Shown here in pieces: positions 44,218 through 52,205 of a stretch of 64,000 bases of DNA; positions within the stretch are counted from its first letter, which is position 1; every line of letters begins with the position of its first letter. The stretch spans positions 1-64,000 of the IMG/VR virus record IMGVR_UViG_3300005581_000001; one strand, written 5' to 3'. Both the position numbers and the translations under genes were made by a program. This DNA is from a virus. The notes below the pieces were generated by a model, which had not been told where the DNA came from, made no database searches, and was given only the letters and a program-made list of their open reading frames with translations.

Positions 44218-47200
44218 ATGGCGTGTACAAGAATAGCAATAACAGGTAAATCTGAATCATTATTATTTAATGATATTTATAGTAAAATAGCAGAATCTAA
44301 TGAAGAACTAGCTGATAAAATGTTTAGTCATTTTCAAACAGAGTTATTTAAAAAAGATTTTGGAAATTTTGTAGAAGATTATAATAACAATGTTATTTCA
44401 GATAGAACAGATGAAAATGGTGAGCCTAAGTTGTTTTATAACGAAACCGCTAAGAAACATTATTATTTAAATAAAGATAAAGAACAAGTGTATTTCCCTC
44501 TAGTTGATAGAGGGTTACGCGCTATATGGTCGTATGACCAAATCAATAAAATTAAATCTAGATTAGCGTTAGCTTATTTTACTAAATCAAGTGCTAAATT
44601 AGATTTTAATAATATTGATTTTAGTGAAATGGAAGCCCTTCCAAGAATTAGTCAATTTATAACTAAAGAAATTAAAGAAAAAGTTGCTAGTTTAGAAGAA
44701 GAAGGTGAATATTTCTCAGCATTAAGCTTATCTGAATCTTTAAATCACATAGATGAACTTTCTGAAAATGTTACTAATTTCTTTAAAGAAATGAATATTG
44801 AGTTAGTTGAAGATGATGCTAATGGAGTTGTGTTAGAAAATGAAGAGGAAGGTAAAGATCCTGTTTTTAATCAAGATTCCGCAGAAAGAAGTACTAAAAA
44901 AAGCGTGAGTACTAATGTTAAATTAAGACTTAGTTTACTTAAAGATAATGAAAATTTAGACCCAATATGGAATGAGCCTACATTTTTAAGTAGAGATATG
45001 GTTTATTCTGCATTACAAGGTGTTTTAAGCGATGAAATTGCATTGCCTGGTGAAGATATATTCAATTTACATAAAGATGCTTTAAATCGCATATTAGCAA
45101 AGAAACCTTTTTTAACAGAACTACACGGTTATTTAAATAACCCTGATATAACAGAGAATCAAAAAAGCGAATTCAGTCAAGCATTTAATTTGATTAAAAA
45201 TAATCATATAGTGACTCAATTTACTATAAATAAAGACAAGACTGTTTCTCATAGCGTTGTTCAAATATCTGATACTGGTTCAAAAACTACTCAAATAAAA
45301 GAACAATGGGATGAAAATTTTCAGAAAAACTTTTTAGGAGTCACTAATAAATTAAAAGATGGATCTAATGAAAGACTATCTAAAGGATTAGTGGTTGTAA
45401 AAGAATTGTCTAAAAAAATAGAGTCTTTTAAGAAGACTTTAAAAGACAGTTCTGATGAAAATTTAAAAAAGAATGAAGTTGAATTTGCTGGATTTGTAAA
45501 TGATATTACAAAAATATTAAAAGTTATAGGCGTAGAAACATCAGAAGATGGTTTTCAAATATACTTAGATAATTTTGGAAAAGACATTTCCTTACCTTCT
45601 ATGGTAAATAACCTACAAACACTTGTAGAACAAACAGAATATGTTTTAAAAGGCATAAAAGACAAATACGCTTCTGTATCAACTAATTATAGCACATTTA
45701 TTGGATTATCTCAAACATTAAGTAAATTAGCCTCGGCTGAAGCATTTATGATGTCTGAAGGCTCTGATGCTACTATTTTTACAGGTGGTAATCAAAAATG
45801 GATTTATTCATATCCATCGTACTTATCAAGTACTATAAAACAATGGAAAAAGAAACCTGAAATGTTAATTAGATTATATAAGTCTGGTCAATATCAATTA
45901 GGTTCTTACTATATGGGAGTATTGTCTGGAACTATTAATAGCAACGGAGATAAGCTTCAATATAATAACAAAGAAGAACAAATAGAAGTTTCTAGAAAAC
46001 TTTTAGATAAAGTTGATTTAGGAGTAATGAATCAAATGAGTACTGAATCTGATTATAAAAAAACAACAGATTTAGCTTATAAAGACTATTTAACTGATTA
46101 TATAAATAAGGTAATTTCTGGTGATTTTACTAGAACAACAACTCAAGCTGATAAAACAACTGAATTACAAATTAAATATAATTTACCTGTATCTTCTTAT
46201 AATGGTATAAAAAACGGAAATTTAACTTTAACTAGAAAGACTAAGAAAATATTTTTTGAATATTTTGCTTCTGAGTATCATAGAATGCTTGAAGCTAATA
46301 AGGAAGTTGAAGACGCAATGTTAGATGGAAGTTTAAAATTAACTCCTCATTATCATTATGTATATAATCCAGAAGCTATTGAAAACGATCCTTCATATGT
46401 GTATAGTAAAAATGGTAACGCTTTTAAATCTCAATATTTTGAAAAATTATCAAAAGATTCTAAAGGTCAAACTCAATTAGAAAAATCTATAACAGATTTA
46501 TTATATACTGACGGAAATTTAAATTTTCAAAAAATAGAACGAGGAGCTAATATAGATTTAGATAATTTATTTGACGAATATTTAGAAGAAAATTTAGATA
46601 AAAGATTTGGTCAAACTATAGCTTATTTACAAAGTTCTGATATATTAGTCAGAAATGAGGCTGGTAATTTAGTACCTAATAAAATAGACTCTAAAATATT
46701 AAATTCTCAATATAAAAATATAAGTGAGTTGCAAAAAGCTTATGCTGTAGCGTCCGACTTTATGGTTAATGGATTAATTCAGAACATAGAGTATTCTAAA
46801 ATGTTTACTGGCGATGTTGCTTTTTATAAGAATATGATTGATTATAAAAAACGTGTGCCAGCAACATATACTGATGGATTACAATTAAGAGTTAACGAGT
46901 GGAATGAAACATTTAAAATAGCTACTATTCAAAGTGTAATGCGAACATCTCCTTTTTACGATAAATTAGTAGAAGATCTTGGAGAGGTTGGCGCAAAACC
47001 TTATGAAAAAATTAATAGTGCAGATGCGCAAGCTTGGATAACTCCAAAAAGATGGAAGTTTTTAATTAAATCTTTAGGTAAATGGACTACTGGAAAAGAT
47101 AGTCACGAGTCAGTTTATCGTAAAATGATGGACGATTCTGAAGAAGGTGTTATATATAGTCAAAAAGAATTAAAACTGGCAGCACAACCTTTGAAAGGCG

Positions 47201-50200
47201 TTTATTTTTATAGAGACAAACAAGGTAAGCCAGTTTATTTAAAATATTCTCAAGCCATAATGTCTCACGCATTAGTAAAGGGTTCTGATTTAGAAAGATT
47301 ATTCAATAAAATGTCTTCTGAGCAAATAGATGAGGTTATTACTTTTGATGGCGTTAAAGTAGGATCTATTGAGCCAACTAAAATTCACGATGAAGGTGGA
47401 AACATAAAAGAAGATTTCCAACTTAATTCTCAAACTTTATATAATAGAGGTTGGAAGCTTCAACAAGACTTACCAACTAAAACATTTAAAGATACTGCCG
47501 TAGGTTCTCAAATACAAAAAAATATATTTGCTGGATTGTTACATAATCAAGAACTTGGAAATTTTGAATTAGACGGACAATTATACACTGGTAGAAATAT
47601 AATTGATAAAATTGTAGAAACAGTTACTGGATTAACAAATAATGGTCTTCAATCATTAAAAGAAGAATTCAAAATAAGTGATGATTTTAAAATAGGTGAT
47701 ATTTCTGGATTTTATAATACATTAATAGATGAATTGAAAAAAAGAGGTGGTTCTGATAATGTCATTAAAGCTTTAAAAGCCCAAACTACAATTATAGGAA
47801 TACCACAATCTTCCAGCAAATTATTTAACATATTTGCTGCTGTAATGAATAGTCGATTAGTTAAAATAAAAACTAATGGAGGTTCATTTATTCAGATGTC
47901 TAATTTTGGAATGAATAAAACAGAGGTTGAAGGTAAAGGAGTTAGATGGTCTCCATTAGCAGACGAAACTACTAATGAACCATACATTTATATTCATCCA
48001 GAAATTTTAAGACCAACAGTTAAACCTGGCGGAGTTTTAATATCTGGAGCGTTTTTATCTAAATACATTCCTGGTTGGAATAAAGAGGATAAGGATGGTC
48101 ATAAATTCACAAATGAAGAATTATTTGTTAGTTATAATGGCGGAGAACCAATTATTAGTAAAAAAATACAAGAAAATATTATTGGATATCGTATTCCAAA
48201 TCAGGGATTAGCTTCTAATGATGCTTTAAGAATTGTTGGAATATTACCAGAATCTTCTGGAGATACTATTGTAGCATATACTGGTATTACAACTAAAACT
48301 GGTTCGGATTTTGATGTTGATAAAATGTATATAATGTTTCCTGCTGTAATAAGAAAAGAAAACAGTAAACTTTTAGAATACGTTGATTATGATGAAAATA
48401 ATATAACTAAAAAAGGTCTTCAAAACAGACTTATAGAATTATACAAATCTGTACTAACTAATACTGATGTTCATAAAGAGGTAATGAAGCCTATTGATAT
48501 AGATTTTATAGAAAAAGAGCTTAACGCTTTATATCCTGAAAAATCAACAATATTTATGAATGCTTTTGATCCTGAAGTTGATACTAAACTAAGATATTCA
48601 TTTTTAGGTGGTAAAGCTGGAGTCGGTCAAGAAGCTAATGCTTTAGTTGATATTAGTAGAGAAGGTAGTTTATCCTTGTATGATGTTAAAAGTATATTAT
48701 GGGGCAATCACAATGAATTAGGAGAGTCTAAATTTGATGATGAATTTTCAGAAGAATTATCTGAAAAAGATTTAGATTATTACGTTAACGATATGGTTAA
48801 AAATGACACTTCTAATGAAAAGAAAGAAGCTCTCAAAAATGCTTTACGTAAAGTTAAAGTTGGAGATTCATTAACAGCTATTCTTAATGCATTTGTTGAT
48901 ATAGCAAAAGATCCATATATATCTAAAGGTAATTGGACGCTATCTACTACAAATGTAGGTAATATGCTTTTAAGACTAGGAGCTCATCCGTTATATGTTA
49001 TTAATTTCTTAGCAAACCCTATAATTAAGCAACACGTAGATTTTCAAAAATCTAAAGAAAGTTTAACTGAAGGAACAGATACTGGAGATAGTATTGAAAA
49101 ATTTAAAAAACAAATAGTTATTGACGCTTTAAGTAAAGTAAAAGATTATAATTTAGATTTAGGTCAACTATATAAAGATTATTTTAATAAGCTTAATATA
49201 GACTATAAGAAAACTAGATTACAACAACTATATGATCACAATGAAATATCTATAGATGAATTTACAACAAGAACATCTGAAGTAGATACTTTATTTGATA
49301 CAACTTTTAAATCGTTAGTTAAAAAATTAAAAGTATCTGATGATGTTTTGAATAGTATTGTAGATAATATGAAGAAACAGCATGAAATAGCTTTTGCGCC
49401 TAATAAATTAAATATATTTGACAACAAAAGTCTACAGTGGAATGAGTATTTGTTAAATTTAGAGTACTTTAGAAATCAAATTAAAACCAAAACACCAAAT
49501 ATTAATTTTCAAATAAATCTACTTAATACTTTTAAAGAAATGCAAGAGTATAGTAAGAATGTTAGAGAGAATGTAATGGTGTCTAAATTAGATACTGATG
49601 GAATGGGGAAAAGCCATAACGACTTATTCTCACTACTTAATTTAAAAGAACAAGTTTTAGGTAAGGTTGAAAATGGTATAAAGGGCTCTATTAAAGGGTT
49701 TGAAACTAAATTTCAAGGTACAACATTAGAAGCTTATTTAAATAGCTTAGAATGGGTTAAAAACGTAGTTCAAAGCAATCCTTTGCTATTTCCTACAGGA
49801 ACAGACCAAGTTCAGGGAATTTTTAACGAAGTTTCAAATGACTTGTATGGTGGAAAATTGACAAATGAAGATTTAATAACTAAATTATCAAAAGAGTACA
49901 ATACTTATGCGTTAAGTAAATTCTTTGATTTATCTAAAGAAGATACTGCTGATTTGTTAAATGATTTTCCATTAAGGTTAAAACAGTTTTCTGATGCTAA
50001 TAAAAGTAAATATTTTTTATTAGATGAACTAAATGTTAAAATTAGTAAATCAAAAGTTTATGGTTCTAGTGTATTTTTAAATAATAGAAAAAAATCATCT
50101 TCTTACGAAACTTTATTTACAAATTCTTGGAGAGATTTAATCATCGACAATCCAAAATTATCTGAAGACTTAATTAAATATTCTTTTGCTACTTCAGGTT

Positions 50201-51705
50201 TTCAAATGAATGTTAATCAATTTTTTACATACATACCAGCTGAATATTTTATACAGAAAGACATTAACAATTCTGTTAGTAAATTTATAGAAGGTAATCA
50301 GCAAGATTTCTTAGATAAATTCTACCTAAATAATCTAAATGATAAAAAATTAGTTAGGAAAGTCTTTAAAAATAATGTAGAAAGCTTAACTGGAAAAATA
50401 GATGAAGGATTTATTATATTAGAACCAGGAAAGGCTAGGTATTATGTAGAACTTGAAACGCAACAATCTCAAGAGCAACTTGAAAATAATGTAACTCCAT
50501 TACCTAAATATTATAAGTTAATTGGCTATGATTCTGAAGAAAGAGGTGTTTATAAAAGAATAGCTGAAACTTCGTATAAATTAAACAAAAAGAATCTTAA
50601 TAATTACACAGATACTAGCGAGCTAGTTACTGATGAATCTCTTAGGTTGCAAAGTTTAGTTGTTAGTGATAGACAAAAAGCTACTGTTGTTCCGTCAAAT
50701 TATACTCTTATTCCAAGTATTGTCTTTGAAGAAAAAAATAACAATAAGAAATCAATAAATATTTACGCAGGAACTAATGAAAACGCAAGTTTAAGTAATT
50801 TTGCGATTAGACCTTTTAAAATAGATTATGGAGGAACTTTATCTGAATTTGATTCTGTAGAACAAGCTTTTCAAGCTACTAAATTAGAATACTCTCAACC
50901 AAGTGATTTTAATTATGATTTAGAAGGAAAAATATTAAATTCTAAATCTCAAAGTGAAATAAAAAAACTTGGAAGATTATTTAAAGGATTAGATGTTGAA
51001 AAATGGAACGAAGATTCTTCTAAAATTATGAAAAGATTTATATTAGAATCATTTAAACAAAATCCTTTAGCATTAAAAGAACTTTTAAATACTGGAGATT
51101 CTAATTTAACTCATACGCAAGATAAAGGTAGTTGGGGAAAAGAATTTCCTAGATTGCTAATGGAGGTTAGAAAAGAATTAACTCCTGAAAATTTTTCTTA
51201 TAATGAGAATCAAGTAGAAATCAGGTTTGATAATGAAAATACAAATAAGGTTGAGTATTTTAAAGGGTTCTGGAATAGAGTAGATATTGAAAAACAAACC
51301 GATAAAGTATTTTTATTTGGAGATAATACTGATGATAGATTAGTAACTAAATATGTTCCTGCTTCTACGCAAGCTGTTATTAGAGGATTGCCTAATGCTA
51401 TAGGCATAGATACTAAAAAAAATAGAGGAACTTCTATTAAAAGTTATTTTACTGATTCTGATTTTAACATATTCAAACAACAAGTTGACGAAGCAATTCA
51501 GAAAGCTAAAGATAGTGGTAAGATAATAGTAATTCCTGAAGACGGAATAGGAACAGGTAAAGCAATGTTAAAAGAAAAAGCTCCTAAATTATTTAGTTAT
51601 CTTGAAGAACAATTAAATTTACTAAAAAATTCCGAAATTGAAATAGATGAAGATTTTAATTTAGACTCAATAGATTATGGAAATCCTGATATGGATTGTA
51701 TTTAA
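44218..51705 (+). CDS. Virion-packaged single-chain double-psi-barrel RNA polymerase with C-terminal NADAR and macrodomain-like domains
   Basis: GYRIPNQ and GSDFDVDK (DFDVD at 48307-48321), ADAQAW, QPLKG and VDIAKDP motifs as in crAss-like vRNAPs such as phi14:2 gp66. Confidence 0.88.
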   Translation: MACTRIAITGKSESLLFNDIYSKIAESNEELADKMFSHFQTELFKKDFGNFVEDYNNNVISDRTDENGEPKLFYNETAKKHYYLNKDKEQVYFPLVDRGLRAIWSYDQINKIKSRLALAYFTKSSAKLDFNNIDFSEMEALPRISQFITKEIKEKVASLEEEGEYFSALSLSESLNHIDELSENVTNFFKEMNIELVEDDANGVVLENEEEGKDPVFNQDSAERSTKKSVSTNVKLRLSLLKDNENLDPIWNEPTFLSRDMVYSALQGVLSDEIALPGEDIFNLHKDALNRILAKKPFLTELHGYLNNPDITENQKSEFSQAFNLIKNNHIVTQFTINKDKTVSHSVVQISDTGSKTTQIKEQWDENFQKNFLGVTNKLKDGSNERLSKGLVVVKELSKKIESFKKTLKDSSDENLKKNEVEFAGFVNDITKILKVIGVETSEDGFQIYLDNFGKDISLPSMVNNLQTLVEQTEYVLKGIKDKYASVSTNYSTFIGLSQTLSKLASAEAFMMSEGSDATIFTGGNQKWIYSYPSYLSSTIKQWKKKPEMLIRLYKSGQYQLGSYYMGVLSGTINSNGDKLQYNNKEEQIEVSRKLLDKVDLGVMNQMSTESDYKKTTDLAYKDYLTDYINKVISGDFTRTTTQADKTTELQIKYNLPVSSYNGIKNGNLTLTRKTKKIFFEYFASEYHRMLEANKEVEDAMLDGSLKLTPHYHYVYNPEAIENDPSYVYSKNGNAFKSQYFEKLSKDSKGQTQLEKSITDLLYTDGNLNFQKIERGANIDLDNLFDEYLEENLDKRFGQTIAYLQSSDILVRNEAGNLVPNKIDSKILNSQYKNISELQKAYAVASDFMVNGLIQNIEYSKMFTGDVAFYKNMIDYKKRVPATYTDGLQLRVNEWNETFKIATIQSVMRTSPFYDKLVEDLGEVGAKPYEKINSADAQAWITPKRWKFLIKSLGKWTTGKDSHESVYRKMMDDSEEGVIYSQKELKLAAQPLKGVYFYRDKQGKPVYLKYSQAIMSHALVKGSDLERLFNKMSSEQIDEVITFDGVKVGSIEPTKIHDEGGNIKEDFQLNSQTLYNRGWKLQQDLPTKTFKDTAVGSQIQKNIFAGLLHNQELGNFELDGQLYTGRNIIDKIVETVTGLTNNGLQSLKEEFKISDDFKIGDISGFYNTLIDELKKRGGSDNVIKALKAQTTIIGIPQSSSKLFNIFAAVMNSRLVKIKTNGGSFIQMSNFGMNKTEVEGKGVRWSPLADETTNEPYIYIHPEILRPTVKPGGVLISGAFLSKYIPGWNKEDKDGHKFTNEELFVSYNGGEPIISKKIQENIIGYRIPNQGLASNDALRIVGILPESSGDTIVAYTGITTKTGSDFDVDKMYIMFPAVIRKENSKLLEYVDYDENNITKKGLQNRLIELYKSVLTNTDVHKEVMKPIDIDFIEKELNALYPEKSTIFMNAFDPEVDTKLRYSFLGGKAGVGQEANALVDISREGSLSLYDVKSILWGNHNELGESKFDDEFSEELSEKDLDYYVNDMVKNDTSNEKKEALKNALRKVKVGDSLTAILNAFVDIAKDPYISKGNWTLSTTNVGNMLLRLGAHPLYVINFLANPIIKQHVDFQKSKESLTEGTDTGDSIEKFKKQIVIDALSKVKDYNLDLGQLYKDYFNKLNIDYKKTRLQQLYDHNEISIDEFTTRTSEVDTLFDTTFKSLVKKLKVSDDVLNSIVDNMKKQHEIAFAPNKLNIFDNKSLQWNEYLLNLEYFRNQIKTKTPNINFQINLLNTFKEMQEYSKNVRENVMVSKLDTDGMGKSHNDLFSLLNLKEQVLGKVENGIKGSIKGFETKFQGTTLEAYLNSLEWVKNVVQSNPLLFPTGTDQVQGIFNEVSNDLYGGKLTNEDLITKLSKEYNTYALSKFFDLSKEDTADLLNDFPLRLKQFSDANKSKYFLLDELNVKISKSKVYGSSVFLNNRKKSSSYETLFTNSWRDLIIDNPKLSEDLIKYSFATSGFQMNVNQFFTYIPAEYFIQKDINNSVSKFIEGNQQDFLDKFYLNNLNDKKLVRKVFKNNVESLTGKIDEGFIILEPGKARYYVELETQQSQEQLENNVTPLPKYYKLIGYDSEERGVYKRIAETSYKLNKKNLNNYTDTSELVTDESLRLQSLVVSDRQKATVVPSNYTLIPSIVFEEKNNNKKSINIYAGTNENASLSNFAIRPFKIDYGGTLSEFDSVEQAFQATKLEYSQPSDFNYDLEGKILNSKSQSEIKKLGRLFKGLDVEKWNEDSSKIMKRFILESFKQNPLALKELLNTGDSNLTHTQDKGSWGKEFPRLLMEVRKELTPENFSYNENQVEIRFDNENTNKVEYFKGFWNRVDIEKQTDKVFLFGDNTDDRLVTKYVPASTQAVIRGLPNAIGIDTKKNRGTSIKSYFTDSDFNIFKQQVDEAIQKAKDSGKIIVIPEDGIGTGKAMLKEKAPKLFSYLEEQLNLLKNSEIEIDEDFNLDSIDYGNPDMDCI

Positions 51706-51722
51706 TAAATAAAATAAAGAAT

Positions 51723-52205
51723 ATGAAATTTATAACACAAGAAGTAATTGATTTACTTAATTACAGAATTCAACAAGAACAGTACAGTTCTAAAGTTTAC
51801 GAGCAAATGGCTCAATGGTTACAAAATGCATCTTTTCTTAACTGCGCAAAAGTTTGGGATAAATTTTCTAAAGAAGAATTAGAACATTCTGAAATAGCCA
51901 AAGATTACCTTCTATCATTTAATATAATGCCTGAGTTAATGGTAATTGAGGAGCCTGTAAATGACTTTACTTGTCTATGCGATGTAATAGAGAAAACATT
52001 TGACCACGAAGTTCTAATCACTCAACAATGCTTAGATTTAACTAAAAAAGCATTTGAATTACAAGATTGGACGTTATTTGCTTTAGGTCAAAAATATAAT
52101 GAAATTCAAAGAGTTGAAATGGATGAAGTTTATTCATTAGTTGATATTTCTAAATTAACAACAGATATGCTTATATTAGATAAATATATAGGTGATAATT
52201 TCTAA
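51723..52205 (+). CDS. Ferritin-like protein
   Basis: LNYRIQQEQYSSKVY, EELEH, HEVLIT and IQRVE ferroxidase-type pattern; start taken at ATG 51723. Confidence 0.8.
   Translation: MKFITQEVIDLLNYRIQQEQYSSKVYEQMAQWLQNASFLNCAKVWDKFSKEELEHSEIAKDYLLSFNIMPELMVIEEPVNDFTCLCDVIEKTFDHEVLITQQCLDLTKKAFELQDWTLFALGQKYNEIQRVEMDEVYSLVDISKLTTDMLILDKYIGDNF

Follow-up and report, generated by a model that had tools for sequence, protein, structure and literature searches.

A NADAR and DUF7831 cassette in a crAss-type virion RNA polymerase: a candidate pre-made counter-defence of a crAss-like phage

The stretch of DNA analysed here (hereafter the window) comprises 64,000 nucleotides, positions 1 to 64,000 of IMG/VR virus record IMGVR_UViG_3300005581_000001, and belongs to an uncultured, AT-rich, marine crAss-like phage whose closest cultured relative is Cellulophaga phage phi14:2. 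One of its open reading frames (ORFs) encodes a homologue of the crAss-type virion RNA polymerase, and between the polymerase body and a conserved C-terminal tail this protein carries two further modules, a NADAR domain and a DUF7831 domain. On the strength of sequence comparison, structure models and analogy with the phi14:2 polymerase gp66, we consider it probable, with moderate confidence, that the two modules are an injected, pre-made counter-defence that remains tethered to the polymerase and acts before the phage expresses its own genes. The features under discussion are as follows, with residues numbered in amino acids (aa) of the full-length product; AlphaFold2 is abbreviated AF2 and hidden Markov model HMM.

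44218..51705, + strand: single ORF of 2495 aa (P0001), polymerase with C-terminal accessory cassette (ORF list and translation)
44218..50559, + strand: RNA polymerase body, aa 1-2114 (BLASTP alignment to phi14:2 gp66)
48307..48321, + strand: DFDVD catalytic motif, aa 1364-1368, aligning with gp66 DFDID 1361-1365
50560..50730, + strand: linker between body and NADAR, aa 2115-2171 (nothing aligns in gp66 past aa 2114)
50731..51192, + strand: NADAR domain, aa 2172-2325 (subfamily HMM envelope; Pfam PF08719, AF2 model)
50860-50862, 50881-50883 and 51112-51114, + strand: NADAR catalytic residues E2215, K2222 and H2299, followed by W2306-G2307
51193..51243, + strand: flexible linker joining NADAR to DUF7831, aa 2326-2342 (predicted local distance difference test, pLDDT, below 50 at model residues 160-171, aa 2328-2339)
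51244..51642, + strand: DUF7831 domain, aa 2343-2475 (Pfam PF25176, AF2 model)
51643..51702, + strand: conserved acidic C-terminal tail with Cys2494, retained as a homologous segment in relatives missing one or both modules

The initial annotation had called the carrier a crAss-type virion RNA polymerase with two domains in frame after the polymerase body, and this holds: both domains lie within the single ORF, and a phmmer search with its 2495-aa product retrieves 6VR4 (phi14:2 gp66) from the PDB at E 6.5e-206. In BLASTP three segments, aa 1-1375, 1401-1615 and 1766-2114, match gp66 within residues 1-2081 of 2180, at 31% identity over 1460 aligned columns, and phi14:2 is the best protein-level relative of the phage, with 42% identity in the core. 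The DFDVD motif is of the DFDxD type named in the gp66 preprint (10.1101/2020.03.07.982082), and the D-x-D-x-D columns are invariant in an alignment of 15 giant proteins. A Pfam scan places crAss muzzle and cargo-1 genes upstream of the polymerase ORF, with the crAss major capsid, auxiliary capsid and tail-ring proteins encoded elsewhere in the 64 kb. Megablast of the polymerase gene against the phage collection gave no match, nor did the C-terminal 567 aa retrieve any relative when scanned against IMG/VR. Judged by its sequence, the product of 44218-51705 is therefore a homologue of gp66.

This homology is what makes delivery with the DNA plausible. The phi14:2 record annotates gp66 as a virion protein from tandem mass spectrometry, and it is reported to enter the cell along with the DNA, to transcribe the early genes and, in vitro, to prefer single-stranded templates (10.1101/2020.03.07.982082). 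By analogy, the polymerase of the window is most likely packed into the virion; we infer that its C-terminal part is packaged with it. The two proteins share, besides the homologous aa 1-2114 and the DFDxD motif, the same neighbourhood, with large cargo-type genes on both sides, and a cysteine both at residue 3 and near the C-terminus. They differ in that gp66 (2180 aa) has neither NADAR nor DUF7831, the window protein being 315 aa longer through the cassette; a DUF7831 search of the phi14:2 record gave no match, though the controls of that search matched nothing either.

The first module, which the initial annotation had placed at 50752-51180, has every NADAR motif listed there and matches PF08719 over aa 2187-2308 with 57.1 bits when searched as a 367-aa piece, 59.5 as the domain alone and 52.8 within the whole protein (cut-off 35.1). 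We modelled the tandem, aa 2169-2495, with AlphaFold2 (mean pLDDT 88; ~90-98 in the NADAR part). A structure search with the NADAR part finds E. coli YbiA (2B3W; E 1.8e-6, template modelling score 0.70), the Phytophthora NADAR with bound ADP-ribose (8BAU; E 4.8e-6) and the Geobacter DarG1 NADAR (8BAT; E 0.03), the last being the weakest of the three NADAR structures. In the phmmer alignment to 8BAU, with residues named after PMC11543638, E2215 corresponds to E43 of the Phytophthora protein (PnNADAR) and K2222 to K50; the equivalent pairs are E88/K95 in the E. coli C7 NADAR and E36/K43 in T4, and the Glu-Lys spacing of seven is that of T4 AdfN. The K-K-L-G-R stretch of the window protein aligns with K75 and R79 of PnNADAR, W2263 with W89 and W2306 with W133.

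Only the third catalytic position had given grounds for doubt, the initial annotation having suspected that LTHTQDKGSWG marks a NADAR of altered activity. H2299 (of LTHT) aligns with PnNADAR E125 in the 8BAU alignment; in the YbiA alignment it falls a single position away, which leaves the register uncertain to that extent. This site holds glutamate in YbiA-family members, aspartate in DarT1-associated NADARs and in BC4488, and histidine in the NADARs of phages (PMC11543638, PMC11125620). Across 138 domains of the subfamily, H2299 is conserved in 99%, as are E2215 (99%) and K2222 (100%), and Q2301 (94%), D2302 (93%) and W2306 (93%) follow closely. What looked like a departure is thus the normal, strongly selected signature of a large phage-type NADAR subfamily. 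By its profile match, aligned residues and predicted fold, the first module is a genuine phage-type NADAR with an intact catalytic set, and its predicted function is that of an ADP-ribosyl-nucleobase glycohydrolase.

Which kind of NADAR this is can be narrowed further. The aspartate of DarG1-type proteins (D171 position) is replaced by histidine, and the basic N-terminal extension of DarG1 appears to be absent, the first folded element of the model being the strand at INIY (model residues 11-13). No DarT family was detected in Pfam scans of the window ORFs, that is, no DarT1 sits beside the NADAR. Phage_30_3 (PF08010) scores 14.3-17.4 bits on the domain, below its cut-off of 36, so it is not a member of the T4 gp30.3 family; in NCBIfam it falls below the cut-off of the riboflavin-type model, and among PADLOC models only that of the candidate system PDC-M42C matches it. 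With AdfN (T4 gp30.3) and other phage NADARs it shares the fold, the catalytic Glu and Lys seven apart, the third-position His (PMC11257639; PMC11125620), the lack of an N-terminal DNA-binding extension and a phage genome as its place of encoding. It differs in belonging to a separate large subfamily with the signature INIYAGTxEN...LTHTQDK and in its deployment: AdfN is synthesized once infection has begun, as a small early protein standing on its own, whereas the window NADAR is fused to a virion polymerase and presumably pre-made.

Comparison of related polymerases, proposed at the outset as a check for domain swapping, shows that the modules come and go. The closest database relative, P0345, shares 96% identity with the window protein over aa 1-2168 and 93% over aa 2329-2495. 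Precisely the NADAR, aa 2169-2328, is missing from it, with nine residues in its place; the indel is defined at the protein level, with its junction at aa 2168/2169. In P0346, 78% identical, the polymerase body is joined straight to the tail and both modules are absent. The conserved acidic tail ends D-Y-G-N-P-D-x-x-C-I in these proteins, and the modules were therefore inserted between body and tail rather than simply appended. Base composition shows no anomaly across the cassette (GC 0.22-0.31 throughout) and hence no compositional sign of recent foreign origin. The two domains behave in the model as beads on a string: the tandem has a predicted template modelling score (pTM) of 0.57 although both domains are confidently folded, and this value together with the disordered linker gives no reason to claim that NADAR and DUF7831 bind each other.

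Such variation is general. Among 101 full-length homologues (~47-98% core identity), 12 carry DUF7831, 4 carry NADAR and none carries both; precomputed Pfam matches reveal a superfamily 1 (SF1) helicase, AlkB, cpYpsA, ART-PolyVal or GNAT in others, and most carry nothing. Insertion sites in the polymerase are two, near aa 1270 and near aa 2170-2200. Approached from the modules, a polymerase core is present in 56 of the 98 proteins of at least 900 aa with NADAR and/or DUF7831, which makes at least 56 such metagenomic giants, with the modules before, inside or after the core and in both orders. RefSeq gut crAss phages have the NADAR-DUF7831 tandem inside giant proteins of cr130_1 (5801 aa), cr131_1 (1401 aa) and cr272_1 (6386 aa), and in cr126_1 a NADAR opens a 2402-aa protein. 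The varied C-terminal cassettes suggest a general slot for a 'first-minute toolkit', and from these comparisons NADAR and DUF7831 appear to form a dispensable, swappable cassette, as counter-defence genes are.

The arrangement resembles the polyvalent proteins of phages and conjugative elements (Iyer et al. 2017, PMC5512222) and the viral NAD/ADP-ribose domain network (Iyer et al. 2022, PMC9503650). Common to them are several effector domains of unrelated kinds united in a single large virion-associated protein, architectures shuffled between relatives, predicted delivery with the DNA, and the co-occurrence of NADAR, SLOG and DUF4326. Here the carrier is instead a crAss-type two-barrel RNA polymerase, a type whose packaging into the head has been shown for the homologue gp66. 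The text of PMC9503650 contains 'crAss' 0 times and that of PMC5512222 NADAR and YbiA 0 times; neither puts NADAR or DUF7831 on a crAss polymerase.

Several further observations concern the carrier. The window polymerase has just two cysteines, Cys3 (44224-44226) and the penultimate Cys2494 (51697-51699). A cysteine lies within the last 8 residues of 100/100 close homologues of at least 2000 aa (P0345-P0462) and within the first 5 residues of 97/101, against an overall cysteine frequency of 0.08%; even across 15 very divergent giants the C-terminal cysteine position does not vary. This conservation points to a conserved terminal function, which could be a disulfide, a metal site, a lipid or an attachment. 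A second insertion hot spot lies inside the body at ~aa 1255-1265 (~47980-48010), ~100 residues before DFDxD, where P0144, P0395 and P0403 have DUF7831 or NADAR. The SF1 (RecD/PIF1-like) helicase cassette is found in ~20 homologues of this polymerase lineage. Immediately downstream lies a ferritin-like ORF of 169 aa (51696-52205, + strand; Pfam Ferritin, E 1.7e-14). Its start shares 10 nt with the end of the polymerase ORF, stop included, and it separates the polymerase from the giant protein that follows; phi14:2 has its two giant genes side by side.

The second module, 51247-51615 in the initial annotation, was there called macrodomain-like. The motifs on which that label was based are real and belong to another family: PF25176 (DUF7831) matches aa 2348-2465 with 96.6-102.7 bits (cut-off 27) over profile positions 3-118 of 118, and VFLFGDN, QAVIRGLPNAIGIDTK and IPEDGIGTGKA are invariant or near-invariant DUF7831 motifs. 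The family is characterized by F-G-D-N, Q-A-x-x-R-G-x-P-N, T-K and P-x-D-G-I-G-T-G, and an alignment of 49 sequences is invariant at F2367-G-D-N2370, Q2385, R2389, N2393, K2400, P2440 and G2443-I-G-T-G2447. AF2 modelling from the same 49 sequences yields a small alpha/beta domain (pLDDT 92.6) with four strands of at least 3 residues. Foldseek of the DUF7831 model against the PDB returned nothing significant. In a further structural comparison TARG1 scored 4.4, and the phosphatases favoured by Foldseek dropped to ~3.

The most specific alternative takes DUF7831 for a macrodomain all the same: the cassette would be a dual injected anti-DarTG kit, the NADAR erasing the guanine mark of DarT1 and DUF7831, as a DarG/TARG1-like macrodomain, the thymine mark of DarT2. 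As to its NADAR half, activity of the family on guanine adducts is established (PMC11543638, PMC11125620, PMC11257639), and phage NADARs are anti-DarT1 factors that remove guanine ADP-ribose and defeat DarTG1 (PMC11257639, PMC11125620). For the thymine half there is a precedent in AdfM (PhiKZ gp104), a phage macrodomain that counters DarTG2 (PMC13309987), and DarTG2-type loci are present in 8.5% of sampled Bacteroidota genomes, DarT (PF14487) itself being found in 34/401. We compared a 200-sequence DUF7831 alignment with alignments of 27 Macro, 28 LOG (Bacteroidota) and 29 DarG macrodomains adjoining DarT by hhalign, using shallow alignments and no secondary-structure scoring. The Macro comparison gave 21% probability (P 1e-3, 105 columns) and that with DarG 14% (P 2e-3, 82 columns), versus 2.1% (P 0.023, 17 columns) for LOG and 0.3% (P 0.17, 16 columns) for NADAR as control families; the positive control, Macro against DarG, reached 97.8% (P 8.7e-13, 121 columns). 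A second register pairs T-K2400 with DarG P-T-K, which contains the catalytic lysine, and the P-x-D-G-I-G-T-G loop with P-P-L-G-x-G-x-G-G, at P 0.025 and just 2% probability.

Against a macrodomain, none of the 49 DUF7831 members matches Pfam Macro at E up to 5, PADLOC DarG does not match DUF7831 at E up to 0.1 (nor does any other PADLOC model), NCBIfam has no match, and the macro core has six strands (PMC9503650) where the model has four. DarG2/TARG1 macrodomains and AdfM differ from DUF7831 in showing no significant sequence or profile similarity to it, and on the host side no DarT1-NADAR locus was found by the subfamily HMM among 30 DarT loci fetched from the 401 Bacteroidota genomes. A macro-like fold is still the best available guess for DUF7831, with the chances about evenly balanced; to call the module 'macrodomain-like' is to interpret, not to observe, and the label is only weakly supported. 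The thymine eraser is a guess, and we regard the dual 'guanine plus thymine eraser' kit as unlikely.

Other identities for DUF7831 fared no better. A SLOG domain, prompted by the 'DprA-like' label on some gut crAss polymerases, is unsupported by the LOG comparison above, and no SLOG or DprA chain is among the top structural matches of the model. The sole PDB profile matches are to triosephosphate isomerase (TIM; E 0.02-0.3) and arise through P-x-x-x-IGTGK-x-A, TIM loop 6; we take this as motif resemblance, not homology. The DUF7831 loop P-E-D-G-I-G-T-G-K-A-M (aa 2440-2450, 51535-51567) resembles the phosphate-gripping loop 6 of TIM, P-V-W-A-I-G-T-G-K-T-A, and the likeness is probably that of a convergent phosphate-binding motif. 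In a protein atlas, used for leads only, the named cluster nearest to DUF7831 is 'A1S_2505 family phage non-structural protein' (0.89); another cluster, 11% of it Macro, scores 0.81.

The family itself is large: at the 50% identity level it still numbers over 2000 representatives, spread across bacteria, phages and giant viruses. As a free protein of ~130 aa it is found in giant viruses and in many phages, of Caulobacter, Rhizobium and Streptomyces for instance, and the domain is present in Acidobacteria, Hymenobacter and Methylobacterium genomes. Our literature search found no publication mentioning DUF7831. Free DUF7831 genes of Acidobacteria (Pyrinomonadaceae) have a gene for single-stranded DNA-binding protein (SSB) upstream (a cluster of 13 loci) and an unannotated 543-581-aa gene downstream (15 loci); loci with the SSB/DUF7831 arrangement include L009, L012, L014, L016, L020, L022, L024, L037, L038 and L045, with several copies per genome.

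What ties DUF7831 to ADP-ribose is its company. Among the matches listed it is fused to NADAR in 10 proteins, to cpYpsA in 4, to YpsA in 1 and to DUF4326 in 2, and such architectures of NADAR, SLOG and DUF4326 have been described as a viral ADP-ribose-processing network predicted to be deployed early or from the head (PMC9503650). The same fusions lend themselves to a second alternative: that the cassette degrades or sequesters, at the start of infection, small signals or toxic metabolites derived from nicotinamide adenine dinucleotide, such as cyclic ADP-ribose isomers or ADP-ribose-1''-phosphate, coming from TIR, SLOG, sirtuin or RES-type systems. It has been argued that in phages NADAR, Macro, SLOG and DUF4326 mostly process soluble ADP-ribose derivatives and are deployed early or from the head (PMC9503650); YpsA/cpYpsA SLOG and DUF4326, to which that paper assigns this role, are fusion partners of DUF7831. 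The missing basic DNA-binding extension, and the match to 8BAT being weaker than that to the YbiA core (PMC11543638), are also in keeping with a small substrate. Every phage NADAR tested so far, however, acts on guanine adducts of DNA or RNA and counters DarTG1, a tether to a DNA-tracking polymerase fits a nucleic-acid substrate more naturally, and we found no report of NADAR activity on cyclic ADP-ribose signals. Small molecules as the target instead of nucleic-acid adducts seem to us distinctly unlikely.

That the cassette merely serves the phage, by reversing ADP-ribosylation that the phage itself makes, by clearing by-products of RNA repair (to which NADAR and Macro have been linked; PMC9503650) or by a structural or packaging role, we consider very improbable: ART-PolyVal does occur on the same polymerase (P0441) or beside NADAR (P0309) in some relatives, but among the window ORFs scanned against Pfam none matches an ART, Tpt1/KptA, RNA ligase or Macro family, the near-total conservation of the catalytic residues speaks against a purely structural role, and presence or absence of the cassette among 78-96% identical relatives indicates that polymerase function and packaging can do without it.

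We therefore return to the injected counter-defence, which would work as follows. The polymerase gene has gained a two-module cassette on flexible linkers between body and C-terminal tail; the polymerase, packed in the capsid, would be translocated with the DNA as gp66 is; and NADAR and DUF7831 would thereby come into the cell with the genome, attached to the very enzyme by which it is read. There the cassette would strip ADP-ribose from template DNA and/or nascent early RNA before phage gene expression, or alternatively destroy ADP-ribose-derived defence molecules. The substrates are left broad here. NADARs act as well on RNA guanosine and on adducts of cytidine (PMC11833690, PMC12945103), and neither DarT1 nor, reportedly, DarT2 shows detectable activity on double-stranded DNA (PMC11543638). 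The stronger activity of the E. coli C7 NADAR, compared with the T4 NADAR and YbiA, has been attributed to nucleic-acid binding; fusion of a bare NADAR core to a DNA-tracking polymerase could supply both timing and substrate proximity, and DUF7831 would add a second, complementary ADP-ribose-related activity.

A number of points weigh against this proposal. The authors of the gp66 study left open that the protein is activated by proteolysis, which bears on whether the C-terminal 330 aa of the window protein survive maturation, and described a Zincin-like protease domain both in gp65, which the neighbouring gene g065 encodes, and in gp65 orthologues (10.1101/2020.03.07.982082). Iyer et al. argue that phage NADAR and Macro proteins mainly target soluble ADP-ribose derivatives (PMC9503650). 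DUF7831 has no significant similarity to macrodomains, and 80 bacterial DUF7831 loci show no toxin-antitoxin or defence-island pattern, their neighbours looking like housekeeping genes (SSB, ABC ATPase, signal peptidase II). Finally, 29/30 of the DarT loci fetched, all those in which an antitoxin could be identified, have an adjoining macro-type DarG of 340-370 aa, that is, they are DarTG2, so the canonical NADAR target goes unseen in this sample of the likely host phylum, and the NADARs tested do not reverse thymidine ADP-ribose (PMC11125620). The last two points taken together make a thymine-directed role for DUF7831 attractive.

A bolder form of the proposal, which we put forward tentatively and hold to be rather doubtful, is that DUF7831 represents a new ADP-ribose-processing family acting on an adduct that NADAR cannot remove, so that the two together would give crAss-like phages protection of the template from time zero. 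Its fold may then be an independent one or a minimal, four-stranded derivative of the macrodomain; the active site would be built from the Asn, the Lys and the glycine loop, and a possible target is the thymine mark of DarT2, the prevailing one in Bacteroidota.

Polyvalent virion proteins, AdfN, AdfM and the crAss virion polymerases are all known already; our literature search found no publication describing NADAR (DUF1768) or DUF7831 cassettes on crAss polymerases. Should the cassette travel in with the DNA, crAss-like phages would arrive with an enzymatic counter-defence on the very enzyme that first touches the genome; in this its timing and its targeting would differ from those of AdfN and AdfM, which are free early proteins. 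Natural controls exist in the form of a 96%-identical polymerase that lacks only the NADAR and a 78%-identical one that lacks both modules. The question of real interest is the function of DUF7831: widespread, and constantly in the company of NADAR, SLOG and DUF4326, the family is a concrete candidate for a new ADP-ribose-related activity.

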